From the NCBI RefSeq assembly GCF_047555085.1, contig NZ_CP180230.1, positions 270,001 to 302,000 on the forward strand: 32,000 nucleotides of DNA. The letters run 5' to 3'. The translations under genes were made by a program, and so were the position numbers. Positions 1 through 32,000 of this stretch are shown one piece after another. Position 1 is the stretch's first letter. Each line of letters begins with the position of its first letter. Source of the DNA: Candidatus Saccharimonadota bacterium. Its GTDB lineage: Archaea; Nanohalarchaeota; Nanosalinia; Nanosalinales; Nanosalinaceae. The notes beneath the pieces were generated by a model. That model saw only the letters and a list, made by a program, of their open reading frames with translations. It was not told the DNA's origin and searched no databases.

Positions 1-162
1 GAAGTGATGCGAGTATACCTCTCCAACTTTCTCGGATTCTGTATGATCAGCTATGTAACTGACTACATTCCTCCCTATGTGGCCTATACCTGCAAGGCCC
101 TCTATAAATACCGGATTTTCGACATCAAAATCTTTCTCCATCTCTATTCTTGTAGTCTTCAT
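1..162 (-). CDS. PAC2 / proteasome-assembly-chaperone family protein, first 54 codons (gene runs off the left edge)
   Basis: Not in the ORF track because there is no stop in the window. Hand translation of the minus strand from ATG 160-162 gives MKTTRIEMEKDFDVENPVFIEGLAGIGHIGRNVVSYIADHTESEKVGEVYSHHF. The FIEGLxGIGxxG pattern and the position just downstream of nop10 fit archaeal PAC2 (COG1938-type) proteins. Confidence 0.5.
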   Translation of the reverse strand, partial: MKTTRIEMEKDFDVENPVFIEGLAGIGHIGRNVVSYIADHTESEKVGEVYSHHF

Positions 163-165
163 AAT

Positions 166-312
166 TTATTCAACCTCTTTTTTCGTTTTGCGTCTGTACT
201 TGCCATGCCTGTCCGGGAACGAAAACTTTGGAGGCCTGGCCTTGACAGTTTTCACGCCGTCAAGTTCATCTTTCAACGTGTACCTATTAGTCTCTGGACA
301 CTTTTTAATCAC
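166..312 (-). CDS. nop10: H/ACA RNP protein Nop10 (48 aa, GTG start)
   Basis: Below the ORF-track size cutoff. Hand translation gives VIKKCPETNRYTLKDELDGVKTVKARPPKFSFPDRHGKYRRKTKKEVE. The ARPPKFSxxDxxGKYRR core matches the Nop10 signature, and it sits in the conserved position after aIF2alpha. An in-frame TGA lies 9 nt upstream of the GTG. Confidence 0.7.
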   Translation of the reverse strand: MIKKCPETNRYTLKDELDGVKTVKARPPKFSFPDRHGKYRRKTKKEVE

Positions 313-347
313 GGTAACTTTTTCACCTGAGTTAAAGAAAAAATTTT

Positions 348-1103
348 TCAGGCTCTTGAGAACTCGAAGTTCCCGTCAAGCTCGTCAACTTTTTCCCGAA
401 TATTTCTTACAGAGTTATCGATACGTTTCTTCGCAAGCTCCTGTGTACGGCCCCAGGCAGTGATAGAGTACTCTGGAGCGGAGATGTACTTCACTTCAAC
501 GCCGTCATTTATATCGGAGAGAACTTCCTTGATACGTTCAACTCCGTCTCCCTGAGGGAAAGAAAGCTCCAGTGTACCTTCCAGTTTCTCCTGCTTCAGA
601 TCGATGTTGTCTCTTGCAACGTCCTGAATAGCCGCTACAACATCTTCATCGAACAGATTCTGAAGCTTCTCTTCCTCGGCCTCTGAAATCTCAAATCCGT
701 AGAAAGAGCTTCCGAACTCTTCCTGCATCCTGAACCCGATATCTTCGTATACATCATCGACTTCACGATCCAGTTTCTCGGCAAGATCCTCGATAAAGCT
801 TTCAGCCTTCTGCTCCTTCTTCCAGCGCTCCATCGTATCGCGCTTGTTATTATCATTTACACGCTTCAAAGACAGAGTAACAGTATCTCCCTCTGCGTCA
901 ATAACCTGTGCAACATTCTTCTCACCCTCACTGAGTTCTTTAGTCATATCCTGAACCCAGGAACGTGAAACCTCGGAGATATGGATAAGGCCTTCAACGT
1001 CCTCGTACTCCTCAAGATCTGCATAAGCAGAGTTCTTGTCAACATCAGTAAGAGTTACAACAACAAAATCTCCTTCCTCAGGCCTATCCTTGTACCATCT
1101 CAT
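348..1103 (-). CDS. eif2a: translation initiation factor aIF2 alpha subunit
   Basis: 251-aa ORF with an N-terminal S1/OB domain (GDFVVVTLTDV...GLIHISEVSRSWV) followed by a helical and an alpha-beta domain. Canonical neighbourhood with nop10 and S27e/L44e. Confidence 0.9.
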   Translation of the reverse strand: MRWYKDRPEEGDFVVVTLTDVDKNSAYADLEEYEDVEGLIHISEVSRSWVQDMTKELSEGEKNVAQVIDAEGDTVTLSLKRVNDNNKRDTMERWKKEQKAESFIEDLAEKLDREVDDVYEDIGFRMQEEFGSSFYGFEISEAEEEKLQNLFDEDVVAAIQDVARDNIDLKQEKLEGTLELSFPQGDGVERIKEVLSDINDGVEVKYISAPEYSITAWGRTQELAKKRIDNSVRNIREKVDELDGNFEFSRA

Positions 1104-1126
1104 AAATACACAAAACGCAAGACAAC

Positions 1127-1136
1127 TTTAAAAATA
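1127..1136. promoter_or_regulatory. TATA-like element (TTTAAAAATA) in the divergent spacer between aIF2alpha and the LamG gene
   Basis: A/T box about 25-30 nt upstream of the aIF2alpha ATG (1103, minus) and about 45-55 nt upstream of the LamG ATG (1181, plus). Similar TTTAAA/TTAAAAG boxes sit about 25 nt upstream of several other starts in the window. Confidence 0.4.
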
Positions 1137-1180
1137 AACTGAAAAACATAAAGGCCTCTCCAACTAAAACTCAAGTACAG

Positions 1181-1822
1181 ATGACTTTAATCGGCTACTG
1201 GCCTCTCAACGAAAACTCCGGAAAGGCCTATGATCACTCCGGCAACGATAATCACGGCACAGTGAATGGAGGGGTTACACAGGGAACAACAGGCCTTCTG
1301 GGAGATAATGCCTATAATTTCAACGGGTCAGATAGCTACGTTGACTACGGATTTTCAAAGAACTTCAGCAAGGTATCAATGTTTTGCTGGATATACATTA
1401 CAGATATCTCCAATTACGATTCACTGATCAGCAAGTACGGAGGAGAAAACTCTGTAGGCGGCAGATCTTACGAACTACTTCAAAACGATCAAGGCGGAAT
1501 AAGATTTCACACCTCCGATGATCGCTTCGACTCAGACTCTCAGATCCAGGAATCCCAGTGGCATCACGTAGGCGCCACATGGGACGGAAATCAAGCCAGA
1601 ATTTTCATAGACGGAAAACAGGATAACTCCAGCCAGAACCTGACACATAACACAAACAATATTACCTGGCAAACAGGAAGAAGCCCCAGATCAACTAACT
1701 ACACACAAGGAAAAATCTCCGAAGTCCGTATCTACAATAGGCCTATCACAGAACGTGAAGTCCAGTACCTCTATCAAGTTGGGAGTAGAGGCCTTCAGAC
1801 AACTTCCAAGAAAACTTCCTGA
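1181..1822 (+). CDS. LamG / concanavalin-A-like lectin fold protein (213 aa, no signal peptide)
   Basis: Laminin_G_3-like pattern: LNENSG..AYDHSGNDNHGT..., LGDNAYNFNGSDSYVDYG, WHHVGATWDG..ARIFIDG, GKISEVRIYNRPIT. Paralogue of 9893..10558. Confidence 0.7.
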   Translation: MTLIGYWPLNENSGKAYDHSGNDNHGTVNGGVTQGTTGLLGDNAYNFNGSDSYVDYGFSKNFSKVSMFCWIYITDISNYDSLISKYGGENSVGGRSYELLQNDQGGIRFHTSDDRFDSDSQIQESQWHHVGATWDGNQARIFIDGKQDNSSQNLTHNTNNITWQTGRSPRSTNYTQGKISEVRIYNRPITEREVQYLYQVGSRGLQTTSKKTS

Positions 1823-1847
1823 GATAAGAAAAGGGAGTAGAGAAAAT

Positions 1848-2021
1848 TTATTCTACTTCGAGTTCTTCTACTACTTCTGCATTCAAGTCTGCTTTTCCTC
1901 CTGTAGGATGCGCGAGAACTTCACTGCAGACAAGGCATTGTACTTCTTCGGAAGGCCTTGAGAAGATTACTTGCTGATTTCCACATTCGCTGCATTCTGC
2001 TCTAATAAATTTCTGTGCCAT
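1848..2021 (-). CDS. rps27e: 30S ribosomal protein S27e
   Basis: MAQKFIRAECSECGNQQVIFSRPSEEVQCLVCSEVLAHPTGGKA is a C4 zinc-ribbon S27e signature. The ORF track extends to a GTG at 2033; the ATG at 2019-2021 is the more likely start. Confidence 0.9.
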   Translation of the reverse strand: MAQKFIRAECSECGNQQVIFSRPSEEVQCLVCSEVLAHPTGGKADLNAEVVEELEVE

Positions 2022-2038
2022 TGATATAATCACTTGTT

Positions 2039-2341
2039 TTATCTTTCGATCTCGAACTTTGCAGCTCTGATCGAGTTGTTAGGTTTCCAGGATTTACCGC
2101 ATTCTGTACATGTGAACTGTAGATCCTTGTTGCCTGATGTAGGGTTGCTTCCTCCTCTTGCCCGATTAGCAGGATTCTCGTAAGGGAAGCTTCCGTATCC
2201 GTTATCAATTTTTCTCTGTCGCTTCCTGTGCTTCTTCTTCATAGGGCTAGCTGTTTGATTGGTGACCTCTTTGACTGTCTGGTCGGTGTGTTCATCACAG
2301 CTCGGGCAGTAACGTCTCTGCTCTTTTGGAATCGTAACCAT
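2039..2341 (-). CDS. rpl44e: 50S ribosomal protein L44e (eL42)
   Basis: 100 aa, basic, with CPSC...CTEC zinc-ribbon cysteines and KKKHRKRQRK. Lies immediately upstream of S27e, as in most archaea. Confidence 0.9.
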   Translation of the reverse strand: MVTIPKEQRRYCPSCDEHTDQTVKEVTNQTASPMKKKHRKRQRKIDNGYGSFPYENPANRARGGSNPTSGNKDLQFTCTECGKSWKPNNSIRAAKFEIER

Positions 2342-2399
2342 ACAAAGAACAAATGGTGTTAAACTTTAAAAGGACAACCCCGTCCTCCTGAAAATTCTT

Positions 2400-3032
2400 T
2401 TACCTGTGAATGATCCTTGTCCCGGAGGCCTCTTCAGGACTCTCCAGGTTCTCGAGAGAGGCCTCGAAAATCTTTGTATCTATCATGGAGCGCTCTATCA
2501 AACGCACAGCAGCCTCATCCACGACAGAGTATATACCTGGCTCGTTGCTCCCTCCTGTGATATCCAGAAGCTCTTCGACAGTGATCTCATCGAACTTTCT
2601 GGCGTCTTCAACTTTCTCCGGATCATCGGTGTACACGCCGTCAACAGTAGTCGCGATGTACAGATCAGCATCAAGTAACTCTGCAACAGTAGCCGCAACA
2701 GCATCCGTGGAATAGCCGGGCACAAGGCCTCCCATGACAACATTCATCCCGGAGGAAGCTGCCTTCTGAACTTCTTCAGGCCTTTCAGGTACTTCAGGAT
2801 ACGTATCATCCATAGCCGTCAGCAAAGTCTGAGCGTGAAGCCTTGTAGCCTTTATACCGATCAGATCTTTCTCTCCATTATTTCCCTTTACAGCACTCTG
2901 ATATCTGTTTAATTTTCCGGCTCCTGTAACTACAGCGATCTGCTCATCAGGAAAGGCCTCTGCGAAATCATTGATCCTCTCCAGATTATCCTGTATAACT
3001 GTTCCACCGACGGCAAAAACTTTTTCAACCAT
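2400..3032 (-). CDS. pyrH: amino-acid-kinase family protein, probable archaeal-type UMP kinase
   Basis: 210 aa with FAVGGTVI..., VVTGAGKL, GGLVPGYSTDAVAATVAELLDADLYIATTVDGVYTDDP. These are typical carbamate/UMP-kinase fold motifs and the size fits archaeal PyrH. Isopentenyl phosphate kinase cannot be excluded by eye. Confidence 0.6.
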   Translation of the reverse strand: MVEKVFAVGGTVIQDNLERINDFAEAFPDEQIAVVTGAGKLNRYQSAVKGNNGEKDLIGIKATRLHAQTLLTAMDDTYPEVPERPEEVQKAASSGMNVVMGGLVPGYSTDAVAATVAELLDADLYIATTVDGVYTDDPEKVEDARKFDEITVEELLDITGGSNEPGIYSVVDEAAVRLIERSMIDTKIFEASLENLESPEEASGTRIIHR

Positions 3033-3689
3033 CTATTTCACCACCTCGGCGTTTCCACGATTCACAAGTATCTCTGCATTATCCTCAGGGATTTCTACTT
3101 CATCCCCTTCGTCGAAAGGCCCGTAGGCCTCGAGATCAGTTCCCATGAACTCTGGAACGCTTGAAGTTATCTCAACAAGATTGTAGCCATCCTCAACATC
3201 TACTTCATCTTCGGCCTCTTCGTCTTCTTCACTTTTATCGTCTTCATCCATAGCAGGCCCGTTATCTATTTCCTCAGTAACTTCTTCAGAGGCCTCTTCC
3301 TCCATGCTGGACAGGCCTTTCTCCGTTGACTCTATCATGCTGTCAACTCTGTCATGATGTCTGTCGAACATGTCTTTCATGTCGCGGAAAAGTTCCTGCT
3401 CCTCTGGAAGAAGATTCAGCTTTGAGCTCTTTACACTTCCCGTGTTTGATGACAGACGGGCTTTCTTCACTATTTTCTCCTCTCTGAGTGATATTATCTT
3501 GTCAAGGACTCTGCGAGCATTCTGATATTCTCGTGACTCTCCTTCGGCCTGTTTCTTCTGCTGGAAGTAGTTGGCAGTCCTCAAGAGAAACTTGTCATCA
3601 AGTTCCACAAGTTCCTGCTGTTTGTTCTCCTTCTTCTGTTTTTTCCGGAGTTCGCTGAACGTCAGAACGTTTTCAGAATCCTCACTCAT
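3033..3689 (-). CDS. GINS subunit (Gins51/Gins15-like) with a long acidic linker
   Basis: N-terminal helical A domain (LTFSELRKKQ...LDDKFLLRTANYF...YQNARRVLDKIISLREEKIVKKA). C-terminal B domain (LVEITSSVPEFMGTDLEAYGPFDEGDEVEIPEDNAEILVNRGNAEVV). Located directly downstream of priS, the conserved archaeal priS-gins arrangement. Confidence 0.65.
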   Translation of the reverse strand: MSEDSENVLTFSELRKKQKKENKQQELVELDDKFLLRTANYFQQKKQAEGESREYQNARRVLDKIISLREEKIVKKARLSSNTGSVKSSKLNLLPEEQELFRDMKDMFDRHHDRVDSMIESTEKGLSSMEEEASEEVTEEIDNGPAMDEDDKSEEDEEAEDEVDVEDGYNLVEITSSVPEFMGTDLEAYGPFDEGDEVEIPEDNAEILVNRGNAEVVK

Positions 3690-3737: not shown

Positions 3738-5090
3738 TCACTCGAAGCATTCCTGAACGTGCTTCTTGTAGTAACTCTCCATCTCGTACTCTTTACCACA
3801 GTAAGGACAGACAAGATCATCTTCATCGTCGTCATCGTCACTACGATTCTTCACCTTTCTGAAAACATAACTCACAGGATTAGAAACTTTCTCCTCGAGA
3901 GAATCTCCCTCATACACCTGCATATCCTTGTAATATCCGTTGGAATCATAGTTCGGAGGAGGAACAATCTCACTTCTCTTCCTGTGCCAGTTAAGCTGTC
4001 CTTTAACATAAGAATCGCGTAAAGGCTCTTTATTTCTCTCATTCCACTCCCAGATCTTCGCCTCTATCTCATCCATTCCGTAGCCAACAGTTCTGTAAAA
4101 ATTAACAAGCACAAACAAAGCTCTTTTTCTGCCGTCCTCCAGGCCTTCCAGAATATTCTTTATCGTTGGCGGAAAATGCTTCTCCGAGATCGCCTCATCA
4201 GGCCTCTCAAAATCTTTATCAGACTTTGATACACGCTTCTCTTTCCTTTTCTCACGCTTCTGCTCCATAAAATCCATGGCCTGGACTACAAGATTCGTGG
4301 CTTCGTTCTCCTCAAAGCTGTCGAGAAATCCTACCTCAAAATCAACTTTATCCATCTCAGCGTCCTCTTTCTCGAAATCATCAATTTCTTCAGGCCTTAT
4401 CGGCAGTGATACAAGCCACGAGCCGTCGTGAAGACTGTAAGGCATACGGAAGAGATGTCTCTGTCCCCAGTCGTTCTCTATATCAGACACTTGATACGGA
4501 TCAAGGCCTTCATCCGTCTCCATCTCCTCCTCAAATCCTGCATCTCGTACCTTCTCTACAAGCTCGTCTTCAAGCTTTTCACGTATGTAATCAACTATTC
4601 CACGCCCCAGCTCTGGATAAAGATTTGCTATGCCTTCGTCGCCTACTTTCTCAGGGAAGGCCTCAGCTCTAACGCCGATATGGAATCCGCGGTTTCCGGA
4701 GAACTTTACAGAGATATTTTCGATACCGTGCTGTCTTAGTTCTTCAATTACAAGTTTAGCTGTCTCCTTTGCCAGTTCAAAGCTGTAATCACAGTCAATA
4801 TCTATCACTAGATCCCAGCTCTTCCTGAGATCATCAAGATTTGATACAGAATCAATCAGCAGAGGATTCCGCCATCTCTCAACGGACGCATGGAACGCTA
4901 CTGCGCCATCCTCCACGAACTGCTGGAAATCTCCAGGAAAATTTATCGCGTCAGGCCTCTGCCCGTAACTTTCTTCATAAGTCGGAACTACTTCACGGTA
5001 CTGGCCTCTGTCCAGAAACCGGTTCACAAGCTCCTCCTGTTCATAATACTGGCGAATCTTCCAGTCCTGCGGTTTTTCCCTCTCCCCCAT
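3738..5090 (-). CDS. priS: DNA primase, catalytic PriS domain fused to a PriL-CTD-like helical domain and a C-terminal C2HC zinc knuckle
   Basis: AEP motifs DLVIDIDCD, SGNRGFHIGV and RMPYSLHDGS. Later, HFPPTIKNILEGLEDGRKRALFVLVNFYRTVGYGMDEIEAKIWEW resembles the FPPC...G..RF.L..FL..IG motif of the primase large-subunit C-terminal domain. The protein ends in an Asp run plus CPYCGKEY...H...C. Confidence 0.85.
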   Translation of the reverse strand: MGEREKPQDWKIRQYYEQEELVNRFLDRGQYREVVPTYEESYGQRPDAINFPGDFQQFVEDGAVAFHASVERWRNPLLIDSVSNLDDLRKSWDLVIDIDCDYSFELAKETAKLVIEELRQHGIENISVKFSGNRGFHIGVRAEAFPEKVGDEGIANLYPELGRGIVDYIREKLEDELVEKVRDAGFEEEMETDEGLDPYQVSDIENDWGQRHLFRMPYSLHDGSWLVSLPIRPEEIDDFEKEDAEMDKVDFEVGFLDSFEENEATNLVVQAMDFMEQKREKRKEKRVSKSDKDFERPDEAISEKHFPPTIKNILEGLEDGRKRALFVLVNFYRTVGYGMDEIEAKIWEWNERNKEPLRDSYVKGQLNWHRKRSEIVPPPNYDSNGYYKDMQVYEGDSLEEKVSNPVSYVFRKVKNRSDDDDDEDDLVCPYCGKEYEMESYYKKHVQECFE

Positions 5091-5977: not shown

Positions 5978-6376
5978 GTGAGAAACCTGGCGAAAATCCT
6001 CAACGCACTGAATGAAAGGCCCAGAAACTTCTCCGATCTAAAGAAGGAGACAGGCCTCGCCAACGGAGTCATCCAGCACCATGCCGATAACTCCGAGAGG
6101 ATTGTCAGGGAGAAGGACGTCCTGATGCTCCGCAGTGAATGCGATAACTGTCCTCTCAAAGGCCTCTGCAGGGAAAAATGCATGTTAAACGTTCTTGCAG
6201 ATGAGAAGAAAAAATTCATCGTAGAAAAATTCAATGAATGTTCACAGGCCTCGATCAGCCGCCAACTCGATGTTTCAAGAGCAACTGTACATTACCACGT
6301 CGAAAAGTTACGCGAAGCAGGTGTCATAGAGAACGAAGCAGTCCGGCCTGAAGTAAAATCTGTTCTACAGCCTTGA
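5978..6376 (+). CDS. transcriptional regulator with two HTH-like segments flanking a four-Cys cluster
   Basis: N-terminal ArsR-like LAKILNALNERPRNFSDLKKETGLANGVIQHH, central CDNCPLKGLCREKC, and C-terminal SQASISRQLDVSRATVHYHVEKLREAGVI. GTG start. The 3' end overlaps the 3' end of the convergent cysteine desulfurase gene by 12 nt. Confidence 0.6.
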   Translation: MRNLAKILNALNERPRNFSDLKKETGLANGVIQHHADNSERIVREKDVLMLRSECDNCPLKGLCREKCMLNVLADEKKKFIVEKFNECSQASISRQLDVSRATVHYHVEKLREAGVIENEAVRPEVKSVLQP

Positions 6377-20816: not shown

Positions 20817-20824
20817 ACTTCATG

Positions 20825-21480: not shown

Positions 21481-21584
21481 TACAGTTGAAGGCCTCTTTC
21501 ATGTAAATCTGTTAATCAGGCCCTTCTCTATGTCTAGGAATTAGTGGAAAATATTTAATAGGGTTTGCTGAATACAGTCTCTCT

Positions 21585-22928: not shown

Positions 22929-22988
22929 AAACTTCTCAATCCTTCTTTATATTACATTTTACTGTCTCCAGTAAAGAAAAAGGAATTT

Positions 22989-24842: not shown

Positions 24843-24845
24843 TAT

Positions 24846-25079: not shown

Positions 25080-25608
25080 TTAATTTTTCCACCTTGTGTT
25101 CCAGTTGTTCCTCTGAGATATCCTCGTTTTTGATCATGTGGTCGCTGAGAGCCATAAGTTTCCCGACACCGTTTTCCACTTCTCTAAGATCTCTTTCATC
25201 GAATCCGTCACCTTTGACATCTTCTTCTCTCTTTCTATCCTCTCTTCTTTCTCTCCGTGTTTCTCTAGAGGTCCAGACAGCCACTACTTCGATATCGTGG
25301 CCTGTCTCCTTTTCGAAACGTTTTTTCTCGCTCCAGCCACGCATCCCGGTGATGACAATCCTTTCTTTCTCCTCCGCCATCTCCTTCAGGTACGGGATCG
25401 AGATTCTGGCTATCGCATCCATGCCGTGTTGAGCTCTCATGTCATTGACCCACTGCCCGGTATCCTCTGTAGCGATATTTCTTTTCTCCATCTCGATACG
25501 GACAACATCCCCCATATCAAGCACCGCAAAGCCATGATCCTGCATGTAATCCGCTACAGTCGTCTTGCCGGACAGAGGCATCCCTGTAACACCGTAGACC
25601 TCAGCCAC
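25069..25608 (-). CDS. P-loop nucleotide kinase, UPF0200 / dephospho-CoA-kinase-like family
   Basis: YGVTGMPLSGKTTVADYM...GFAVLDMGDVVR matches the archaeal UPF0200 pattern (GxTGMPGSGKS...MGDxxR). The C-terminal half is highly charged. Overlaps the gatD stop by 8 nt. Confidence 0.65.
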   Translation of the reverse strand: MAEVYGVTGMPLSGKTTVADYMQDHGFAVLDMGDVVRIEMEKRNIATEDTGQWVNDMRAQHGMDAIARISIPYLKEMAEEKERIVITGMRGWSEKKRFEKETGHDIEVVAVWTSRETRRERREDRKREEDVKGDGFDERDLREVENGVGKLMALSDHMIKNEDISEEQLEHKVEKLIES

Positions 25609-26899
25609 GGTAAACAGACCTCTCGCTTAACTCACCGTTAAGATTTTCCAGGAAAAATTCTTCCGCTTCTTCCATGTCAGAGGCCTGGCCAAGACTCCAC
25701 ATCAACTTGACGTAAGCCAGCTCCGGATGCATATCCTCCGCTCCAACGACTCCGGCCTCCTGAATCTTCAATCCAGCGGAGTAGACATCCATATCAACAC
25801 GTCCGTTCAGACACTGAGACGTCATAACCACGACAGCATCATCAGCGATCTCCTGAAGCTTCTCCAGAATCTCTGCGTGATGCTGTGTCTCATCATCAAA
25901 CGCGTTCACAGGCATATGTCCAAGGCCTGTCCCTTCAACGATGACTCCATCGTAATCCTGCTCCTCGATGAACTCCAGTTCTTCAGGCCTCATTCCAGGC
26001 CTGATACGGAGCCATCCGACATTCCCGTCTAATTCAGTATTTTTTTCGTACTCTTCATCAGAGGCCTCGAAGTTTTCCTCAATTTCCCCTGTCTCATAGT
26101 TTATATGGCCGAGAGGCTCTGCGTTGATCGCTGAAAAAGCATCTCTACGGGAAGTATGCATCTTCCGGACTTTCTGTGGCGGCAAAATATTGCATCTTGT
26201 ATCACTTGAATCTTCATGCATGCATACGCCGAGGCCTGTAAAATCTGTCTCCGTCAAAAACTTTGAAGCACAGTACATGTTCATGGCGGCATCGCTGCTG
26301 GGCCTGTCGCTTGATCTCTGGGATCCGACAAGCATGACGCCTGTATCAAGATTTTGCAGCATCAAACTCAGTGCTGCGCCTGTATAACTCATAGTATCTG
26401 TTCCGTGTCCGATTATGATGCCGTCGTACTCGTCCTTCACTTCATCGATCTTCTCAGCGATCTTCTTCCAGTGTTCTGGCTCCATGTCCTCGGAAAGCAT
26501 CTGTGCGATAACATCGGAGTGGATATTCACTTCCTCCGCCAGCTCCGGATACATCTCCACAAGATCTTCCGGATCGAACGCAGGCTCAACTCCTCCCTTT
26601 TCATATGATACACGTGAGGCGATCGTTCCGCCTGTGTGAAGCACCATGATATCCGGCTTATCCTCAGAATGCTGGACTTCATCCCTCTCATTTTCAGTAG
26701 AGGCCTTTTTCTCGATCAACTCGATATCTTCAGGATCAACTCCGATGTTGTATCCGGAATCATCCTTCAAAATCAATGTATCAGGATCCCCTGACTCCGG
26801 CTTAGGCATCAGAACTCCTTCACGTCCAGAGGCCTTTATCCTGTCACCGGTTTCAATATCTTTCTCGTCAAGTTTATCGAGAATTTTCTCCGAATACAT
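25601..26899 (-). CDS. gatD: Glu-tRNA(Gln) amidotransferase subunit D (asparaginase-like)
   Basis: 432 aa with the asparaginase motifs VLHTGGTIAS and IIGHGTDTM, plus an N-terminal GatD-specific domain. Confidence 0.92.
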   Translation of the reverse strand: MYSEKILDKLDEKDIETGDRIKASGREGVLMPKPESGDPDTLILKDDSGYNIGVDPEDIELIEKKASTENERDEVQHSEDKPDIMVLHTGGTIASRVSYEKGGVEPAFDPEDLVEMYPELAEEVNIHSDVIAQMLSEDMEPEHWKKIAEKIDEVKDEYDGIIIGHGTDTMSYTGAALSLMLQNLDTGVMLVGSQRSSDRPSSDAAMNMYCASKFLTETDFTGLGVCMHEDSSDTRCNILPPQKVRKMHTSRRDAFSAINAEPLGHINYETGEIEENFEASDEEYEKNTELDGNVGWLRIRPGMRPEELEFIEEQDYDGVIVEGTGLGHMPVNAFDDETQHHAEILEKLQEIADDAVVVMTSQCLNGRVDMDVYSAGLKIQEAGVVGAEDMHPELAYVKLMWSLGQASDMEEAEEFFLENLNGELSERSVYRG

Positions 26900-27089
26900 A
26901 GGCCCGATTTACCGTACAAAGTTTAAGAAACTACATCTCGCCCGAAGAAAAATTCTCCTCCATCAACAATTCTCCTCGTCAAGAGGCCTCTCAGTAACAG
27001 GATAATGTTTTCAGGCCTGCAGCCGATTTTCCGGCACCTGTTTTAAACTGTTTTTATAAGAGTCGCCCTAGAATTGTTTTCTGTAAGAC

Positions 27090-27097
27090 TTTAAAAC
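27090..27097 (+). promoter_or_regulatory. TATA-like box TTTAAAAC upstream of the RNase J gene
   Basis: Centred about 22 nt upstream of the ATG at 27115. AAGGTGA (27098-27104) could alternatively serve as an SD-like element. Confidence 0.35.
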
Positions 27098-27114
27098 AAG
27101 GTGAAATTTCTAAC

Positions 27115-28428
27115 ATGAAAGTTTACACATTAGGTGGATATGAAGAAGTTGGTATGAACATGACCGCAGTTGAAGTTGACGGAGAAGTCGTCATCTTTGA
27201 CATGGGTTACAACATGGAAAACGTCATATCCGCAGAAGGACACGTCGACGAAATGACAACAAATCAGAGCCTCGAGATCGGGGCAGTACCGGAAGACGAA
27301 CCGGTTCTAGACAAAAACGTAGTAGGAATCGTCATCGGACACGGACACCTCGACCACGTGGGAGGAATCCCAAAACTGGCAGGTAGCCATGACTGTCCGA
27401 TCTACTGTACTCCTTACACAGCAGAGATCGTAGAGAGAGGATTGGACGACGACCGGAAGAACGCCGGCAACCAGGTAATCAGACTTGAAAAGGGAGAAAG
27501 GATGGATCTGACAGGCAATCTAACTTTAGAATTTGCTCACGTCAACCACAGTATTCCTGATGCAACACTAAGCCTTCTGGAGACACCGGAAGGATACGCC
27601 GTCTACGGAAACGACATGAAGATCGACCGTTCTCCAGTTATCGAAGACACAACCGATATCGACCGACTCAAGGAAGTCGGAGAGGAAGGAGTCAAAGTCA
27701 TGATCCCGGGAACAACAAGAGTCGATTCCCCTGGACGAGCACGCTCCGAAAAGTCAGTTGAAGTAGAACTCAGAGACGTACTTGAATCCTGCTACGACGC
27801 AGGAGGCGCAGTATTCTTCTCAACATTCTCAAGCCAGATCAGCCGCTTGAACTCCGTAATCGACGCAAACGACGGAAGAAGAAAGATCATCTTCGTCGGA
27901 CGCTCACTGAAGGAATACGTTGAATCAGCAGAGAAGCTTGATTTGATCGATACCGATCAGATCGAAGTAGTCAGTTACTTCGACGAAGTAGAGGAGAAGA
28001 TGGACGAAGTTGACGCAGCAAGAGAAGACTACCTTGTCGTCGCAACCGGAAACCAGGGAGAACCTGGCGCACAGCTCGACAAGATGGCTTCAGGAACATA
28101 CCCATTCGACTTCGAGGAAGGAGATCACATGATCTTTTCCAGCAACGTCATCCCTACACCAGTCAACGAAGCCAACAGACACAAGCTAGAGAAGAAACTG
28201 GAAGAGAAAGGAGTCAGGATCTATCCGGGAATCCACACCACAGGACACGCCCACAAAGAAGACCACAGAGACTTCATCAACTTCTTCGATCCAGAACACA
28301 TCGTCCCAAGCCACGGAACAATCCAGAAACTCGGAAGCTACGTAGAACTAGCCCGAGAAGAAGGATACAGCCTAGGAGACAACGTCTACATCTCCGAAAA
28401 CGGCAAATGCATTGACTTGGACGAATAA
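27115..28428 (+). CDS. rnj: archaeal RNase J (beta-CASP metallo-beta-lactamase)
   Basis: 437 aa with VIGHGHLDHVGGIP (HxHxDH), NHSIPDA, and a beta-CASP region ending in TTGHAHKEDH and VPSHG. Confidence 0.85.
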   Translation: MKVYTLGGYEEVGMNMTAVEVDGEVVIFDMGYNMENVISAEGHVDEMTTNQSLEIGAVPEDEPVLDKNVVGIVIGHGHLDHVGGIPKLAGSHDCPIYCTPYTAEIVERGLDDDRKNAGNQVIRLEKGERMDLTGNLTLEFAHVNHSIPDATLSLLETPEGYAVYGNDMKIDRSPVIEDTTDIDRLKEVGEEGVKVMIPGTTRVDSPGRARSEKSVEVELRDVLESCYDAGGAVFFSTFSSQISRLNSVIDANDGRRKIIFVGRSLKEYVESAEKLDLIDTDQIEVVSYFDEVEEKMDEVDAAREDYLVVATGNQGEPGAQLDKMASGTYPFDFEEGDHMIFSSNVIPTPVNEANRHKLEKKLEEKGVRIYPGIHTTGHAHKEDHRDFINFFDPEHIVPSHGTIQKLGSYVELAREEGYSLGDNVYISENGKCIDLDE

Positions 28429-28436: not shown

Positions 28437-28466
28437 AGAGGCCTGAAACAAGGCCTCTCACCTTTT
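28437..28466 (+). terminator. perfect 8-bp hairpin from two AGGCCT copies plus a T-tract
   Basis: AGAGGCCT (28437-28444), GAAACA loop, AGGCCTCT (28451-28458), then CACCTTTTATT. Begins 9 nt after the RNase J stop. Confidence 0.55.
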
Positions 28467-28544
28467 ATTGTATTTAATCTTCTTTCCGCTACATTCTCCT
28501 GATTAACCAAACCAAAATAAAATTTGGGAAGAATATTCTGGTAA

Positions 28545-29549
28545 ATGTTTGGTTTTCTGAATATTTGCACTCTGGCGATAATTTTCCCGCTTTTCATATT
28601 AGGGGTATACTATTTTTCGGACTTTTTCTGGTCTCCATTTTCAGTTAGGGTAAGGTTAACCTTGAGATTGCTCAAAACCAATAAAAAGGAGATTTGGAAG
28701 CATAGAGATATACTTAGACTTGAAAGCTTCAACTCGCAAATAATAGTTTCTTCGTTAATGACTGTCGCTATAGGATTTTTGGGGTATTCTCTCTCACATA
28801 TTTTTACAAGCAGTATTTTCGATAATCTAAAAAAGAGTGATCTACAATCTTTATGGACAATACAAGGAACTCTGGTATCTATAAGCTTTATCATACTTAC
28901 TCACTTGTGGGATCAACTCACAGAATTCGTGCCAGAAGGCATAGTTGATTTAATAGCTCGAAAAACGTATAGTTTTCCAATAATTATATTCAACTTTGTT
29001 GTTCTGATAGCAACAGGAGTTCTAGTCTTTCTAGTTTCTGAAGATTCTAGTAACACCCAGTTTACACTCCCAATATTTCTACTGGGTCTTTCAAGTGTCT
29101 TGAGTATAGTGTGGTTGTACTCTAGAGTTTCAAAAATAGTTCTCTACAATGGAATTTCTAATTTTGCTATTAGCCAAGCAAGAGACGAGATAGATGAAGA
29201 ATCTTGGAAGAACACCAAATACCAGATAGGCAATGAAATTCTAGATAGCAAAATCCCATCATACAGAAAAAGTCAGAAATCATTGAATTTAAGCAATGAC
29301 GTAACCATAACTGCTGAAGATTTAGATCTTGAAGGACATATTTCTGATATAAATTATCGAAGACTGAAGAAAATATTTTCTATAATCGATCCTGAAAAAG
29401 TCACATCAGGCCCAAGTTTAGGTCAAGATTTTTCTAGAGAAAATGATGCAGTATTAAGACTGAAGGAAAATATTAGTCAAGAAACTAGAGAAAAATTAAC
29501 TAACCAGTTGAGAAAATCAATTAAGACATCGAAAGGGTTTTCATTATGA
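28545..29549 (+). CDS. hypothetical polytopic membrane protein (334 aa) of the AT-rich island
   Basis: Five hydrophobic segments by eye (about aa 3-24, 64-86, 103-121, 143-164, 173-192), then a charged soluble tail of about 140 aa. The TGA overlaps the ATG of the next gene (ATGA at 29546-29549). No family confidently recognised. Confidence 0.6.
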   Translation: MFGFLNICTLAIIFPLFILGVYYFSDFFWSPFSVRVRLTLRLLKTNKKEIWKHRDILRLESFNSQIIVSSLMTVAIGFLGYSLSHIFTSSIFDNLKKSDLQSLWTIQGTLVSISFIILTHLWDQLTEFVPEGIVDLIARKTYSFPIIIFNFVVLIATGVLVFLVSEDSSNTQFTLPIFLLGLSSVLSIVWLYSRVSKIVLYNGISNFAISQARDEIDEESWKNTKYQIGNEILDSKIPSYRKSQKSLNLSNDVTITAEDLDLEGHISDINYRRLKKIFSIIDPEKVTSGPSLGQDFSRENDAVLRLKENISQETREKLTNQLRKSIKTSKGFSL

Positions 29550-31522
29550 ACGAAAATCTTAATACACTCTTAGACTACTTTGGAAGCCGAGCCTCAAAGA
29601 GTTTGTCTGAAAATGACCTCTACCTCTTCAAGGAAAGATTAGAGGAATATCGGGAAATAATTGAGTATTACTTGGAAAACAGAGCTATACCTAGAGATAG
29701 ATCACTTGGTTCTAGCGTAAGACGCCCTTCAAATCGAATTATCCAAAATCTCATCAACCTCTATGAGGTGGCGATATCGAAGCCAAATACACAGTTTAGC
29801 TTAGAGTTAATCGGGTCAGTACGCTTACTAATTTCAAGAGCCTACTCTGAAAGAGACAGAATGATGCTGGAAAAGTTTCTCTCTGTATATGAAGATTTTG
29901 TTAGATTAGATTTAGAGAAAAATGACTCTGAAATGAGTAGGGCTTTACTTCTTAGATTAAAGAAATCTGCAGACCACATATTATATGATGTAGAAAATAA
30001 TTTAGATACTAAAGATACTTTAGTTGCTCTGGAATTTCTCGCTCTATTCTACAATAGTCAAAAAGAGCTTATAAGAAAAATTATAGTTTCCGAAAACAAA
30101 GAGCTATTCGTTAAGTCCCTCAAGATGTTTGATGAACATAATAGTAAGCTAGATCGAATCAAATCGGATATTAATTTCCGAGATATTTCGGATAACTCCG
30201 AACCTCAAAAAGAAGATTCTGATATACTCGATAAGATAGATGATCTAAATCAAGAATTGGAAGAAACTCCTTTTGGGGTAGGTGCCTGGGTGTTTAGAGA
30301 ATATGAGAACGGTAATCTTGACGAAGATTTCTTTAATAATGTAAGAGAGGAGGTAATAGGGAAATTTGAAAACAAATCTATCGGCGAAATCTCTAGTATC
30401 TACTTTGAAATTCTAGAAAGCACTCCCTCTTACTGGAATAGTTGGCAAATGTCAGAGGAATTAGATGTTTTTGAAGGCGCAACTTCCATGGGAAGCCCTG
30501 CTGCAGTTTCATGGATTCAAAATTTCTACTGCGGTCTAATGATTAGGAATATTAGCGACGATAAAATAGAGGAAATCTTAGAAAGAGAAGAAGAGTTCTC
30601 AAATCCGATATCAGTAAGAAAATCAATCAAAGATAATATTGAAAGTCTCAAAGAACAAACTCAGAATTTTTCAACAGAAGAATCTCTAATGAGAGATATA
30701 GAGGATATCCGGTCAAGAAAAGAAGCAGTAAGCAAAATTTTCGAAAATATTAAATCTGAGATAGAGACGGACGAAAGACAGGAAATAATCAATTCAGAAG
30801 TGTCCGACTCTTTGGTTTCTGAGTTCAAAACAGGGCTTAGAGATAGTTGGGAGTCAAATGCTGATTTCAGGAAACTCTATAATGACTTGGGCAGATTTGA
30901 AGAAAATTCATCAGAAGCTCCTGAAGAAGCTAGAGAGCTAGGGCTGAACAGAGTTTTCTACCGCAGTTATTTTGTGGAAGATTCTCCCAGAAACTGGGTT
31001 AGAAATGTAGATGATAACTGGGGTAGAGCTATAGCAAAAAAGGAAAATGAAGTGATTTTTGAGGAACTATTCGGCTCTATTGAGTTCCAGAAAATTTCAT
31101 GGGAAGAAATAGATTCCAGAATGTTAGATGCTGATATAAGCGGATTTGAGGATTCTCAGCCAATAATGCTTGTAGGAAATAGCCCTCGACTAAAATATAG
31201 AGCTAAAAATATAGAGAGATTAGAAATCAATGAAGAGAAAGGAAAATATCTCTATAACAACAAAGAAGTACCTATATACCATATCAACCATCTTAGAGAT
31301 AAATTAATAATCACAACCGCAGAGAGACTAGGAAGACTTCTCCAGTATTCAGAAGGAGAAAATCTATCAATAGAATTTAGTGAAAATATTCCTTCAGATG
31401 TCTCTAAAAACTTGGAATTAGAAGATCCCGAAACTAGAGTCTTGATTAAAGCATCAGAATCCTTTGAGGTTAAAGAAATACAGCAGGATAGTTCAACCAT
31501 CAGTTATGAAATCCAGGAATAA
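29546..31522 (+). CDS. hypothetical large soluble protein (658 aa) of the AT-rich island
   Basis: Uninterrupted 1.98-kb ORF in AT-rich DNA, where random ORFs of this length are very unlikely. Predicted mostly helical and E/K/N/S/I-rich. No P-loop, HNH, DEAD, PD-(D/E)xK or other motif recognisable by eye. Confidence 0.65.
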   Translation: MNENLNTLLDYFGSRASKSLSENDLYLFKERLEEYREIIEYYLENRAIPRDRSLGSSVRRPSNRIIQNLINLYEVAISKPNTQFSLELIGSVRLLISRAYSERDRMMLEKFLSVYEDFVRLDLEKNDSEMSRALLLRLKKSADHILYDVENNLDTKDTLVALEFLALFYNSQKELIRKIIVSENKELFVKSLKMFDEHNSKLDRIKSDINFRDISDNSEPQKEDSDILDKIDDLNQELEETPFGVGAWVFREYENGNLDEDFFNNVREEVIGKFENKSIGEISSIYFEILESTPSYWNSWQMSEELDVFEGATSMGSPAAVSWIQNFYCGLMIRNISDDKIEEILEREEEFSNPISVRKSIKDNIESLKEQTQNFSTEESLMRDIEDIRSRKEAVSKIFENIKSEIETDERQEIINSEVSDSLVSEFKTGLRDSWESNADFRKLYNDLGRFEENSSEAPEEARELGLNRVFYRSYFVEDSPRNWVRNVDDNWGRAIAKKENEVIFEELFGSIEFQKISWEEIDSRMLDADISGFEDSQPIMLVGNSPRLKYRAKNIERLEINEEKGKYLYNNKEVPIYHINHLRDKLIITTAERLGRLLQYSEGENLSIEFSENIPSDVSKNLELEDPETRVLIKASESFEVKEIQQDSSTISYEIQE

Positions 31523-31696
31523 ACACCTAATTATAAGATCAAATTTCCAATAGGTCTCATATTTGCTGAAGCTACTGAAAAGGAGTTACTGATTAAACTT
31601 TCTGGGCCTCTAATCAATTTTGTGAGTTATTCCAGTCCGGAAAAATCCTTGTATCGAAGATTCTTGATAGAGGCCTCTAGGGAGATGTTCTTGTAG

Positions 31697-32000
31697 ATGG
31701 GAAGGGCGAATAATTGGCGGAAGGAGTCTGAGGATGGCGAGAGTATTGTCTGGCTTCATGAGGGCGGATATGATTTCAGGCTTCGTGCGGATAAGGATGA
31801 GGATAAGAAGTGGGCCTTGAGTTTGTCCAGTGATATTTTGCCGGAGAAGTATGATAAAGAAGTTTTGACGATGGATACGAAGAAAAAGGCCCGGAGTATT
31901 GCTTTTGACTGGAGGAAGTCTCATACAGAATCCAGTGATTTACTGAAGGAAGTAGGCCTTTCTATGAGCAGTTCGAGGAACGTGTTCAATCCTTTCAACA
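31697..32000 (+). CDS. hypothetical protein, 5' part (open to the right edge)
   Basis: Not in the ORF track because there is no stop in the window. The ATG at 31697 opens MGRANNWRKESEDGESIVWLHEGGYDFRLRADKDEDKKWALSLSSDILPEKYDKEVLTMDTKKKARSIAFDWRKSH... with host-like charged composition. The antisense track ORF 31610..31924 looks like low-complexity nonsense. Confidence 0.45.
   Translation, partial: MGRANNWRKESEDGESIVWLHEGGYDFRLRADKDEDKKWALSLSSDILPEKYDKEVLTMDTKKKARSIAFDWRKSHTESSDLLKEVGLSMSSSRNVFNPFN

Follow-up and report, generated by a model that had tools for sequence, protein, structure and literature searches.

AGGCCT, a HIP1-like highly iterated palindrome in the DNA of some Nanohaloarchaea

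Organization of the locus

The host of the DNA considered here is a tiny, salt-loving symbiotic archaeon of the Nanohaloarchaea, within DPANN, and its GatD protein, 100% identical to that of Candidatus Nanosalina sp. VS9-1, identifies it as this organism. The window, that is, the whole 32-kb stretch analyzed (45.3% G+C), carries copies of the palindrome AGGCCT along its length, save for one island. Its main features are the following.

1–28456, no strand: native DNA, 130 of the 132 AGGCCT copies, 4.6 per kb
1104–31609: 25 true spacers, 24 inside 1104–28544, the remaining one at 31523–31609
6365–7477, minus: class-V aminotransferase gene, the densest gene (9 AGGCCT, 8.1 per kb; 9 of 10 permissive places filled)
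12744–12858, minus: 5S rRNA gene, no internal AGGCCT; copies at 12870 and 12903 in the upstream spacer
20826–20860, plus: terminator-like hairpin, two mutually pairable AGGCCT 15 bp apart, 9-nt loop, then a T run
21407–21480, minus: tRNA gene, no internal AGGCCT; one copy, at 21490, 10 bp upstream
22989–24842, minus: GatE gene, 7 AGGCCT
25601–26899, minus: GatD gene, 8 AGGCCT
27115–28428, plus: RNase J gene, 0 AGGCCT
28438–28470, plus: terminator-like hairpin, two AGGCCT 12 bp apart, 7-bp stem (GAGGCCT / AGGCCTC), 6-nt loop
28457–31670, plus: low-GC island free of AGGCCT (about 35% G+C, 0 copies in 3.2 kb)
28545–29549 and 29546–31522, plus: overlapping island ORFs of unknown function
31671–31959, no strand: the word resumes past the island, two copies, at 31671 and 31954

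The copies in native DNA start at:
232, 988, 1080, 1152, 1224, 1291, 1739, 1789, 1953, 2426, 2459, 2725, 2778, 2954, 3125, 3290, 3313
4141, 4200, 4392, 4504, 4658, 4953, 5292, 5558, 5801, 5843, 6052, 6160, 6246, 6621, 6711, 6861, 6941
7009, 7110, 7206, 7321, 7409, 7766, 7828, 7866, 7961, 8318, 8569, 8583, 8856, 9024, 9233, 9753, 9865, 9939
10006, 10475, 10525, 10589, 11255, 11348, 11492, 11651, 12019, 12280, 12348, 12533, 12636, 12870, 12903, 12968
13275, 13433, 13663, 13832, 13998, 14058, 14252, 14332, 14577, 14678, 14906, 14946, 15247, 15591, 15714, 15769, 15857
16266, 16854, 17152, 17182, 17464, 18091, 18280, 18379, 18505, 18863, 18893, 19067, 19358, 19631, 19690
20732, 20826, 20841, 21163, 21266, 21490, 22331, 22484, 22826, 23165, 23276, 23402, 23595, 23753
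24029, 24430, 24896, 24998, 25681, 25923, 25985, 25997, 26062, 26232, 26701, 26830, 26984, 27013, 28439, 28451

Two window genes were considered in connection with the word and set aside: the UDG gene, as a repair candidate, encodes an ordinary family-4 uracil glycosylase, and the m5C methyltransferase gene adjacent to it, as an AGGCCT methylase, encodes an RNA enzyme.

Excess, unit, and saturation of the word

AGGCCT occurs exactly 132 times in the window, about once per 242 bp (4.1 per kb overall), and is the top-ranked of all hexamers. The original prediction had counted about 130 copies against an expectation near 6, and all nine of its example starts (232, 988, 1080, 1152, 1224, 1291, 1739, 1789, and 1953) are correct. 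The zero-order expectation is 6.25 copies, a first-order Markov model expects 7.0, and dinucleotide-preserving shuffles (n = 100) average 6.86 with a maximum of 15, none of the 100 reaching 132, which confirms an excess over chance of about 20-fold. Higher Markov orders expect 20.1 (order 2), 61.9 (order 3; z about 9), and 130.7 copies (order 4), the last being uninformative because the hexamer already contains 132 of the 159 AGGCC and 132 of the 171 GGCCT. Across 33 genes (26 kb), 110 copies stand against 12.8±3.4 (maximum 26) when synonymous codons are permuted with proteins and global codon usage preserved, and against 6.9±2.6 when codon order is shuffled; the count is thus nowhere near a codon-preserving expectation. 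Spacing is Poisson-like (gap CV 0.98).

The hexamer is the unit of the excess. In the NGGCCN table of the window, the A..T combination accounts for 132 occurrences, the runner-up for 18, and GGGCCC for 0; one-off words are far rarer than the full word, as had been claimed (AGGCCC 18, GGGCCT 16, TGGCCT 13, CGGCCT 10, AGGCCA 6), and inner-position variants number 0–10 each. The flanks vary over 16 octamer contexts and are biased only weakly, against a preceding T and a following A. No single peptide motif underlies it: codon phases 0, 1, and 2 hold 23, 48, and 40 copies, respectively, and the peptides DRPEEG, VEGLIH, and EEASG are all present, each with AGGCCT. These observations show a property of the DNA, and not a peptide, a codon preference, or a repeat element.

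Within genes, the word approaches the limit that proteins allow. Window genes fill 110 of their 136 protein-permissive places (81%), and the gene comparisons show that AGGCCT occupies about 80–100% of protein-tolerated places and makes compatible peptides (R-P, x-G-L, and [EKQ]-A-[S/F/Y/L/C/W]) about twice as frequent. RNase J lacks the word because it is a very conserved protein with just one permissive place in 437 aa (97% identical to the loci L001 and L002 introduced below, in N-terminal stretches only), a case that shows how purifying selection limits AGGCCT.

Spacers and hairpins

The strongest excess in the window lies in the true spacers, from which small uncalled genes and RNA genes were taken out. 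These 1,722 bp (n = 25; 36.6% G+C) contain 16 copies, or 9.3 per kb, where 0.19 are expected (observed/expected 85), and the copies are found alike in divergent, convergent, and tandem spacers. They start at 1152, 7866, 11492, 12870, 12903, 13275, 15247, 15714, 15769, 20826, 20841, 21490, 26984, 27013, 28439, and 28451. The spacer copies originally named (1152, 7866, 11492, 13275, 20826/20841, and 28439/28451) are genuine; a spacer placement of the copies at 232, 1953, 24896, and 24998 was rejected, as these lie inside small unannotated genes. Two pairs form terminator-like hairpins. One (20826–20860; GG AGGCCT TACGGGAAG AGGCCT CTACATTTTTTCC) stands directly past the stop of the gene at 19593–20816, and the other (28438–28470), located after the RNase J gene and followed by TTTTATT, is kept in the nearest relative, L153 (counterpart 6020/6032).

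Distribution among relatives

The word is on in two separate nanohaloarchaeal clades, at 3–5 copies per kb, and off in their sister lineages, cultured reference species included, at about 0.3 per kb; each enriched clade adjoins a non-enriched sister at about 82–85% GatD+GatE identity. Non-enriched lineages include the cultured N. constans LC1Nh and N. occultus SVXNc, the one nanohaloarchaeon for which a published methylome was found (PMC11001535). The same enrichment recurs in independent assemblies, one of them a complete genome. Between the window and L153, which is enriched, 91% of AGGCCT sites are conserved against 28% of control hexamers; the figures are 69% against 17.5% for the enriched L002, and 7% against 22.5% for L001, which is equally close but non-enriched. 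Positive maintenance, as originally proposed, is well supported, considering that the excess survives codon- and protein-preserving nulls, peaks in non-coding DNA, and is accompanied by such conservation.

Orthologues reveal how the sites arose. Those of enriched lineages hold 1.2–2.0 permissive peptides per 100 aa, of which 54–100% are realised (79–100% without locus L020), whereas those of non-enriched lineages hold 0.65–1.35, of which 0–14% are realised. At lineage-specific AGGCCT sites, the counterparts differ at all six positions, by transitions and transversions alike, which shows that the word builds up through point substitutions wherever in the hexamer they fall, in spacers as well as in every frame. 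Gains are not confined to synonymous positions: many sites coincide with amino-acid replacements, among them several in GatD relative to non-enriched orthologues, and convergent replacements are seen across the two clades. At columns 1570/1571 of the GatE alignment, the two clades differ in register: the word is read in phase 1 in clade A (EAF), and in clade B it starts one base further on and is read in phase 2 (EGL). AGGCCT is written into the DNA even at the cost of altered proteins.

When 96 kb of enriched and 141 kb of non-enriched loci are pooled and compared, the full word is 13.6 times as frequent in enriched DNA and the outer one-offs AGGCCC/GGGCCT 4 times, while GGCC lacking both correct flanks shows no enrichment (0.8x). 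Inner transition neighbours are slightly scarcer in the enriched loci (AGGTCT/AGACCT 0.6x; AGGCTT/AAGCCT 0.8x).

The island at 28457–31670 serves as an internal negative control for the enrichment: none of its 5 permissive peptide places carries AGGCCT, against 81% elsewhere. Synteny with L153 ends at 28459, the island being non-syntenic, and its ORFs have no match in Pfam, NCBIfam, PADLOC, or viral contigs. It is probably recently acquired DNA. Together, the enriched/non-enriched sister pairs and the AGGCCT-free island suggest, from sequence comparison, that the determinant of the word may be mobile.

What maintains the word

AGGCCT is a HIP1-like word of VS9-1 and a few other nanohaloarchaeal lineages. 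The best explanation that we can offer for it, a tentative one that falls somewhat short of an even chance, is that a mobile AGGCCT-specific reader biases repair or recombination. A horizontally mobile protein would read exactly AGGCCT and tilt mismatch repair or recombination toward the cognate, methylatable hexamer, although it is unknown whether these reduced genomes have a MutS/MutL-type or methyl-directed pathway. A one-off word mutated to AGGCCT would be kept and a mutated AGGCCT restored, a ratchet already put forward for the HIPs of cyanobacteria. The ceiling would be set by protein constraint and codon usage, and AGGCCT pairs may have been secondarily co-opted as terminator-like hairpins. 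Whatever causes the bias must target the hexamer in its entirety, given the differences at all six positions and the shortfall of simulated single- and double-position repair described below. The most plausible candidate for the reader is a StuI-type DNA methyltransferase, orphan or in a restriction-modification system; this is inferred without methylation data or a reader gene. The window and about 0.5 Mb of related loci yielded no gene for a DNA methyltransferase, a restriction enzyme, Vsr, or a MutH-like protein. Enzymes specific for precisely this hexamer are known and do move: in Alcanivorax borkumensis, an active system located beside a transposase gene both methylates and cleaves AgGCcT (PMC12128166). 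In cyanobacteria, alternate HIPs are found together with a methyltransferase whose specificity matches them (PMC4390886).

The main rival of the reader model, unlikely in our judgment but to be taken seriously, is a drive of the kind known for uptake signals, in which a receptor or recombination factor prefers AGGCCT-bearing fragments. DNA exchanged among nanohaloarchaeal cells would be enriched for the word, which would spread by molecular drive and distinguish "self" DNA, with about 4 copies per kb, from other DNA, with about 0.3. Such a drive predicts a whole-hexamer bias, and it accommodates the use of all frames (and, by symmetry, both orientations), the denser spacers, the terminator-like pairs, which resemble those of DUS/USS, the acquired island without AGGCCT, and the reshaping of peptides at weakly constrained positions with very conserved proteins spared; HIP1 itself has been linked to DNA uptake in a recent preprint. 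However, a tag of 6 bp has much lower specificity than the 9–12-bp uptake sequences known, the loci examined contain no competence gene whose distribution follows that of the word, and the same hexamer in two clades with non-enriched lineages between them would require receptor transfer. Archaea are not known to possess uptake sequences or sequence-specific DNA receptors.

Direct selection seems to us somewhat less probable still. Each AGGCCT would be a working site, for instance for a nucleoid or segregation protein or as a strand-discrimination landmark in repair, in a role needing roughly one site per 250 bp, the frequency at which a 4-bp site such as GATC occurs by chance. The observed density of about one per 242 bp suits such a role, as do the strong conservation between enriched relatives and the partial retention of outer-position one-offs, as expected of weaker binding contacts. 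Yet spacing is indistinguishable from random with no enforced maximum gap, sister lineages live without the word, and about 4,000 sites per genome, by extrapolation from the window, imply a minute effect per site despite 80–100% saturation and altered proteins. HIP1 conservation has elsewhere been interpreted as selection for function and not biased repair (PMC5861425); our conservation test cannot separate the two.

Very-short-patch repair alone, in which an m5C methyltransferase at AGGCCT and a T:G-mismatch endonuclease or glycosylase restore the word from deaminated or near-cognate forms, is disfavored and very improbable. It is an established cause of word enrichment in E. coli, and the depletion of inner transition neighbours is in its favor, but even a deliberately generous simulation (instant, error-free conversion of neighbours in unconstrained DNA) reaches a ceiling of only 1.05 per kb with one cytosine and 2.67 with both, against 9.3 in spacers and 4.1 overall. 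The non-enriched pool of AGGCCT plus inner transition neighbours is just 1.5 per kb, and gains occur at all positions, transversions included. A by-product of codon, dipeptide, or amino-acid preference or of a peptide motif is refuted, common as the compatible peptides RP, xGL, and EAS are, by the protein- and codon-usage-preserving null, the use of three frames, the non-coding peak, and the mostly unfilled permissive places of non-enriched orthologues. Equally refuted are an origin in a dispersed repeat or miniature mobile element built around AGGCCT and an artefact of assembly, which have only high copy number in their favor against variable flanks, copies at orthologous codons within conserved genes, and recurrence in independent assemblies.

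Comparison with known systems and significance

The observations establish AGGCCT as a HIP1-like highly iterated palindrome, an archaeal counterpart of those in cyanobacteria. No archaeal description of such a word had been known to the original prediction, and none was found in full-text literature searches, whose partial coverage is not proof. Of the analogues then proposed, HIP1 and DNA uptake sequences hold up; the third, very-short-patch repair with an m5C methyltransferase, cannot give the density on its own. HIP1 (GCGATCGC) and alternate HIPs are short G+C-rich palindromes, 15- to 300-fold over-represented, and, like AGGCCT, occur in all reading frames and between genes, are conserved among related genomes above control words, have one-letter deviations concentrated at outer positions, and are patchily present, with some lineages lacking them and function debated (PMC4390886, PMC5861425). 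AGGCCT differs in its archaeal (DPANN) host, in being a hexamer, not an octamer, and of unrelated sequence, in its higher density (4–5 per kb overall, rising to 9 per kb in spacers, compared with about 0.3–2.7 per kb for HIP1), and in switching on and off between lineages only about 15–18% apart in protein sequence; unlike alternate HIPs, it has no demonstrated cognate methyltransferase.

Other systems offer partial parallels. The DUS of Neisseria and USS of Pasteurellaceae are likewise dispersed words (about one or more per kb) that lie in genes at weakly constrained peptide positions, are scarce in recently acquired DNA, form terminator hairpins as pairs, and can accumulate by molecular drive, but they are 9–12 bp, non-palindromic, and bacterial, with a demonstrated competence receptor for which AGGCCT has no shown equivalent. 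In E. coli, the methyltransferase target CCWGG is also enriched via biased repair (Dcm/Vsr), with its deamination product depleted; that effect is modest and concerns one position, as opposed to 20- to 85-fold and six positions here, where no Dcm/Vsr pair was found. Chi/KOPS-type words are short and kept frequent because a DNA-processing machine reads them, but they are asymmetric and strand-skewed, whereas the palindrome AGGCCT has no orientation. Genomes usually avoid, or are indifferent to, the target of a restriction system that they carry. StuI-type systems such as that of Alcanivorax borkumensis SK2 read the same hexamer, methylate its cytosines, and have adjacent mobile-element genes (PMC12128166); SK2 has 1,674 AGGCCT sites in its genome, whereas the nanohaloarchaeal word is iterated to near saturation.

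Beyond the original prediction, this analysis contributes the identity of the source organism, the switching of the word on and off between close relatives, its mark on protein sequences, and the island that lacks it. The enriched and non-enriched nanohaloarchaeal sisters constitute a natural on/off system for the causes of such words.

Excess of AGGCCT over null models

Direct counting places exactly 132 copies of the palindrome AGGCCT in the 32-kb window, close to the approximately 130 of the original prediction, which had also located its example copies correctly. The zero-order expectation at 45.3% G+C is 6.25, bearing out the roughly 20-fold excess predicted at about 45% G+C, and dinucleotide-preserving shuffles of the window yield an expectation of 6.86 with a maximum of 15. 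Among all 4,096 hexamers, AGGCCT is the most frequent in the window. The codon-shuffled control suggested at the outset leaves the excess in place: coding DNA (33 genes, 26 kb of the window) holds 110 copies versus 12.8±3.4 (maximum 26) under synonymous-codon permutation, which retains every protein and global codon usage, and 6.9±2.6 under codon-order shuffling of the same 33 genes. The companion suggestion of Markov nulls succeeded only in part. Expectations at orders 1–4 are 7.0, 20.1, 61.9, and 130.7; the word remains two-fold over expectation at order 3 (z about 9) but not at order 4. This growth with order is circular, as the sub-words are already part of the hexamer itself (132 of 159 AGGCC and 132 of 171 GGCCT in the window belong to full AGGCCT), and high-order Markov nulls are thus uninformative as a test of the excess. 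Observed/expected ratios in the other enriched loci, namely, related loci that carry the excess, are 16–25, and the over-representation criterion for the highly iterated palindromes (HIPs) of cyanobacteria, a ratio of at least 15, is met.

AAGCTT is the second most frequent palindromic hexamer in the window (31 copies, about three times expectation). It is also the leading palindrome in two non-enriched loci, L004 and L015, and its abundance is probably a codon-level effect.

The hexamer as the unit, and its placement

Words of the form NGGCCN in the window are dominated by AGGCCT (132 copies, against 18 for the runner-up and none for GGGCCC). Its flanks vary over 16 octamer contexts, a preceding T and a following A being only weakly disfavoured. 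Pooled across loci, the full word is enriched 13.6-fold and half-correct words 1.85-fold, while GGCC with both flanks wrong is not enriched (0.8-fold), in support of the hexamer as the unit. Comparison of single-letter variants between enriched and non-enriched loci gives 3.95-fold for AGGCCC/GGGCCT, 1.7-fold for TGGCCT/AGGCCA, and 0.6–1.2-fold for inner variants. Deviations therefore concentrate at the first and last positions, another HIP criterion that is met; one-off HIP words in cyanobacteria likewise deviate at their outer positions (PMC4390886).

That the word is not a single peptide motif, as had been inferred, is evident from its occupancy of all three reading frames (phases 23/48/40), where it encodes R-P, [E/K/Q]-A-[S/F/Y/L/C/W], and x-G-L, and from its presence in noncoding DNA. 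It is realised in 110 of the 136 permissive places (81%), namely, peptide positions where synonymous choice permits AGGCCT, and the majority of those left unfilled would require rare Leu codons. The intergenic copies were confirmed after small uncalled genes had been separated from the spacers. These genes are:

1–347 (−), Nop10-like protein and end of a PAC2-like protein, small genes in a spacer-like stretch
1823–2038 (−), S27e-like zinc-ribbon protein, small gene in a spacer-like stretch
24843–25068 (−), 77-aa ORF flanked by the kinase and GatE genes, kept in three related loci (L153, L157, and L158)

The four copies within them are coding and are excluded from the spacer total. The true spacers amount to 1,722 bp at 36.6% G+C and contain 16 copies (9.3 per kb, 85-fold over expectation); divergent, convergent, and tandem spacers all carry them.

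Spacing in the window is Poisson-like (CV 0.98), with no regular spacing or short-range periodicity found over the 32 kb, a length too short to bear on the 10–90-kb periodicity counted among HIP criteria. Across all enriched loci including the window, copies are never less than 11 bp apart; about eight pairs are expected at 6–10 bp and none is observed. A spike at 11–12 bp corresponds to hairpins with 5–6-nt loops, some of them intragenic, which close pairs form because the word is self-complementary. One intragenic pair in GatD (25985/25997) is kept in L002 (NHA29), L153 (a TARA scaffold, the nearest relative), and L154. The pairs at 20826/20841 and 28439/28451, the latter kept in a relative, directly follow gene ends and are succeeded by T runs, an arrangement seen also in L153 and L025 (SG9); a terminator role is putative.

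The 5S rRNA and tRNA genes of the window contain no AGGCCT. Copies at 12870 and 21490 lie 10–17 bp upstream of these genes, between a TATA-like box and the RNA gene start. This placement upstream of both stable RNA genes may be coincidence, and the protein-gene promoters of the window exhibit no fixed AGGCCT position.

Distribution among relatives

The gene content of the window is archaeal (aIF2-alpha, L44e, GINS, PCNA, GatD/E, and an apparently fused primase), and its GatD matches that of the nanohaloarchaeon Candidatus Nanosalina sp. VS9-1 at 100% identity. AGGCCT density across related loci is sharply bimodal.

Density of AGGCCT in the window and related loci (copies per kb)
Window: enriched, 4.1
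L153 (TARA scaffold): enriched, 4.95
L002 (NHA29): enriched, 4.1
L025 (SG9, complete genome): enriched, 3.5
L017, L018: enriched, 3.0 and 3.4
L020: intermediate, 1.85
L021, L022: intermediate, 0.8–1.0
L001, L157, L158, Nanosalina J07AB43, N. constans LC1Nh, N. occultus SVXNc, and about 15 others: non-enriched, 0.0–0.55

Distance trees of GatE and of GatD+GatE resolve two enriched clades, A (the window, L153, and L002) and B (SG9, L017, and L018), each with a non-enriched sister clade. The window is equally close to non-enriched L001 and L157 (83% aa identity) and to enriched L002 and L153 (82–85%). No substitute iterated palindrome was found in the non-enriched relatives, whose leading words are acidic-codon repeats. 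The published nanohaloarchaeal methylome is that of N. occultus SVXNc (PMC11001535); this species and the cultured N. constans LC1Nh both lack the enrichment, and the methylome is uninformative on AGGCCT.

Viral contigs scanned for clustered AGGCCT returned chiefly tandem-repeat noise, and no nanohaloarchaeal virus was recognised among them. One viral contig of unknown host, L034 (IMGVR_UViG_3300029432_000018, 1–3639, 36% G+C), has 13 copies in 3.6 kb versus 0.4 expected, chiefly in small clusters between ORFs, and scattered copies, about 2 per kb, are present in L119 and L144.

A 450-aa ORF at 3738–5090 (−) has a small-subunit primase domain (aa 103–232) and a weak large-subunit primase match (aa 287–356); judged from these domain matches, its product looks like a fused PriS-PriL primase, a type known from Nanoarchaeum. 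Paralogous proteins of about 215 aa at 1181–1822 (+) and 9893–10558 (+) bear concanavalin-A-like lectin (Laminin_G_3) domains, which are typical of nanohaloarchaeal surface proteins; domains of this type are present too in a 1,415-aa protein of L155, truncated by the locus end. GatE of L153 (9533–11395) is called as two ORFs of 140 and 415 aa, a frameshift, whether from misassembly or because the gene is a pseudogene.

Conservation and effect on proteins

Codon alignments were used to compare AGGCCT sites of the window with control hexamers in each relative.

Retention of window AGGCCT sites in relatives
L153: AGGCCT at 30/33 sites (91%), controls 28%, nucleotide identity 78.6%
L002: 69% of sites, controls 17.5%, nucleotide identity about 71%
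L001 (non-enriched): 1/14 sites (7%), controls 22.5%, nucleotide identity 76.7%

Between enriched relatives, AGGCCT is thus conserved beyond control words, as the HIP criterion demands. The effect extends to protein sequence. Many sites coincide with amino-acid replacements (KAS versus QES in GatD, KAS versus KVD in GatE), and at a single spot in GatE the clade A word encodes EAF while that of clade B, one base further and in another frame, encodes EGL. The replacements QAS, KAS, and PGL recur in both clades, a convergence. Compatible peptides number 1.2–2.0 per 100 aa in enriched orthologues versus 0.65–1.35 in non-enriched ones, and are realised as AGGCCT in 54–100% (79–100% except L020) versus 0–14% of cases. 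Protein constraint sets a ceiling, as RNase J shows: this highly conserved protein, with 97% identity to L001/L002 over N-terminal stretches and 66–86% full-length identity in other relatives, leaves room for the word at a single permissive place in 437 aa, and its gene lacks AGGCCT.

Across the aligned genes at 15782–28428, presence patterns in the order window/L153/L002 are 111:17, 110:8, 011:8, 101:2, 010:11, 100:1, and 001:8, so that L153 has 11 private sites versus one in the window. A drive that is weaker, or on the wane, in the VS9-1 lineage is possible, although convergence leaves the polarity ambiguous: gain and loss patterns are confounded by it, and L153, at 78.6% identity, is too diverged for single substitutions to be cleanly polarised. 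No closer DNA was obtained, as scanning metagenomes added just five loci, all distant.

An AGGCCT-free island

The stretch at 28457–31670, about 35% G+C and not syntenic in L153, contains two ORFs:

28545–29549, multi-pass membrane protein, function unknown
29546–31522, 658-aa protein, function unknown, overlapping the first ORF by 4 bp

It holds no AGGCCT, with none of its five permissive places realised, and behaves as newly acquired DNA not yet reached by the AGGCCT process. Searches of both ORFs against Pfam, NCBIfam, PADLOC, and viral contigs produced zero matches, and methyltransferase motifs are absent from them; a restriction–modification system was rejected on these grounds. Two further ORFs, 10583–10837 (−) and 31610–31924 (−), have odd low-complexity translations without homologues and are probably not genes, and 31523–32000 may accordingly be noncoding or part of a gene leaving the window.

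What drives the enrichment

Whatever its origin, the bias has to act in favour of the whole word and to depend on something that lineages quickly gain or lose. A modest bias that converts one-off words would suffice, given that a simulation converting every such word runs away to over 100 AGGCCT per kb. Our best guess, inferred and not shown, is that a mobile protein reading exactly AGGCCT would be the source. There are precedents in bacteria: in Alcanivorax, a transposase gene adjoins an active system with AgGCcT as its methylation and cleavage site (PMC12128166), and in cyanobacteria, alternate HIPs are each accompanied by a methyltransferase of matching specificity, and a repair ratchet directed by methylation has been put forward for the HIPs (PMC4390886). 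The window and related loci yielded no gene for a DNA methyltransferase, a restriction enzyme, Vsr, or a MutH-like protein, and motif scans for m5C, N4/N6, and Vsr detected nothing in all nanohaloarchaeal loci; neither search extended to the complete VS9-1 and SG9 genomes. We put forward only tentatively, as a possibility that may well prove wrong, that the whole-hexamer bias stems from a transferable reader, be it a methyltransferase, a repair nickase, or an uptake receptor, and that AGGCCT serves as an archaeal self tag against host DNA.

Two rivals are not separated from our best guess by the data. The word could be spread through DNA uptake or recombination, by a drive of the kind attributed to DNA uptake sequences (DUS/USS), and such a drive is now proposed for HIP1 as well. 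AGGCCT resembles DUS/USS in being dispersed (4.1 per kb overall) and in being missing from the probably acquired island (0/5 permissive places); it differs in its length of 6 bp, with weak flank preference, from the 9–12 bp that give DUS/USS their own-species specificity. DUS/USS form inverted pairs that act as terminators; for the AGGCCT pairs with T runs such a role is only putative. Alternatively, direct selection for a chromosomal function could keep the word in place, as argued for HIP1 from conservation (PMC5861425), but near-saturation, altered proteins, and random spacing count against weak per-site selection.

Very-short-patch repair of deaminated 5-methylcytosine, of the Dcm/Vsr type, fares less well. 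An apparent analogue at 13741–15200 (−) consists of a family-4 uracil-DNA glycosylase gene and a NOL1/NOP2/Sun-type RNA m5C methyltransferase gene that overlap by 4 bp; both are housekeeping types, the same genes lie near each other in non-enriched L158, and the pair was rejected. Neither Vsr nor PCQ motifs occur in any locus examined (loci, not whole genomes), and no pair of m5C DNA methyltransferase and T:G endonuclease was found. Instant conversion of inner transition neighbours, simulated in unconstrained DNA, has a ceiling of 1.05 per kb if one cytosine is involved and 2.67 per kb if both are, well short of the 9.3 per kb in spacers; in non-enriched relatives, AGGCCT and all its inner transition neighbours total only 1.5 per kb. 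Moreover, lineage-specific sites vary at all six positions by transitions and transversions, their alternative states including AGGCTT, AGGTCT, AAGCCT, AGACCT, AGTCCT, AGGACT, AGGCAT, ATGCCT, GGGCCT, AGGCCC, and AGGCCA. Conversion of deamination products is insufficient as the sole cause. Codon or peptide bias is excluded by the codon-preserving null, the non-enriched orthologues, and the spacers, a dispersed repeat or miniature mobile element by the variable flanks and the copies at orthologous codons, and an assembly artefact is likewise excluded.

Relation to known systems and implications

Of the analogues originally named, the HIPs fit and Dcm/Vsr-type enrichment does not. AGGCCT meets every testable sequence-level HIP criterion: a palindrome in extreme excess, in all frames and spacers, conserved beyond control words and deviating at its outer positions. 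Its behaviour is that of a HIP, yet it is not HIP1, which is cyanobacterial and GCGATCGC-related; the present word is shorter, unrelated, and nanohaloarchaeal. Nor does it resemble a resident StuI-type Type II restriction–modification target, which is avoided or at most neutral, being in 20-fold excess. The expectation that no such motif had been described in archaea stands insofar as full-text searches, with partial coverage, found no archaeal iterated palindrome and no link of AGGCCT to nanohaloarchaea, an absence of evidence.

The cause of HIP1-type iterated palindromes has been disputed for three decades. One is now seen beyond the bacteria, its host being a DPANN symbiont whose genome measures about 1 Mb, and it is an extreme case: permissive places are nearly saturated, the frequency of compatible peptides is roughly doubled, replacements are convergent, and a DNA-level bias visibly overrides protein-level preferences. 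Because close sister lineages either carry or lack AGGCCT, the driver of iterated palindromes becomes directly testable. As these differ by only about 15–18% in protein, finding the gene that tracks AGGCCT is a tractable question, and since VS9-1 may be cultured, the driver could be identified by comparative genomics plus a methylome. In enriched genomes the word is a built-in marker separating native from newly acquired DNA; it is also a strong binning signal for salt-lake metagenomes and a warning for phylogeny, codon-usage, and selection analyses of these lineages. If the transferable-reader reading were true, no "self" DNA tag would have been described in archaea before AGGCCT, a whole-hexamer conversion bias would be strong enough to rewrite protein sequences, and host-attached DPANN cells would distinguish their own or kin DNA from host DNA for repair, recombination, or uptake.
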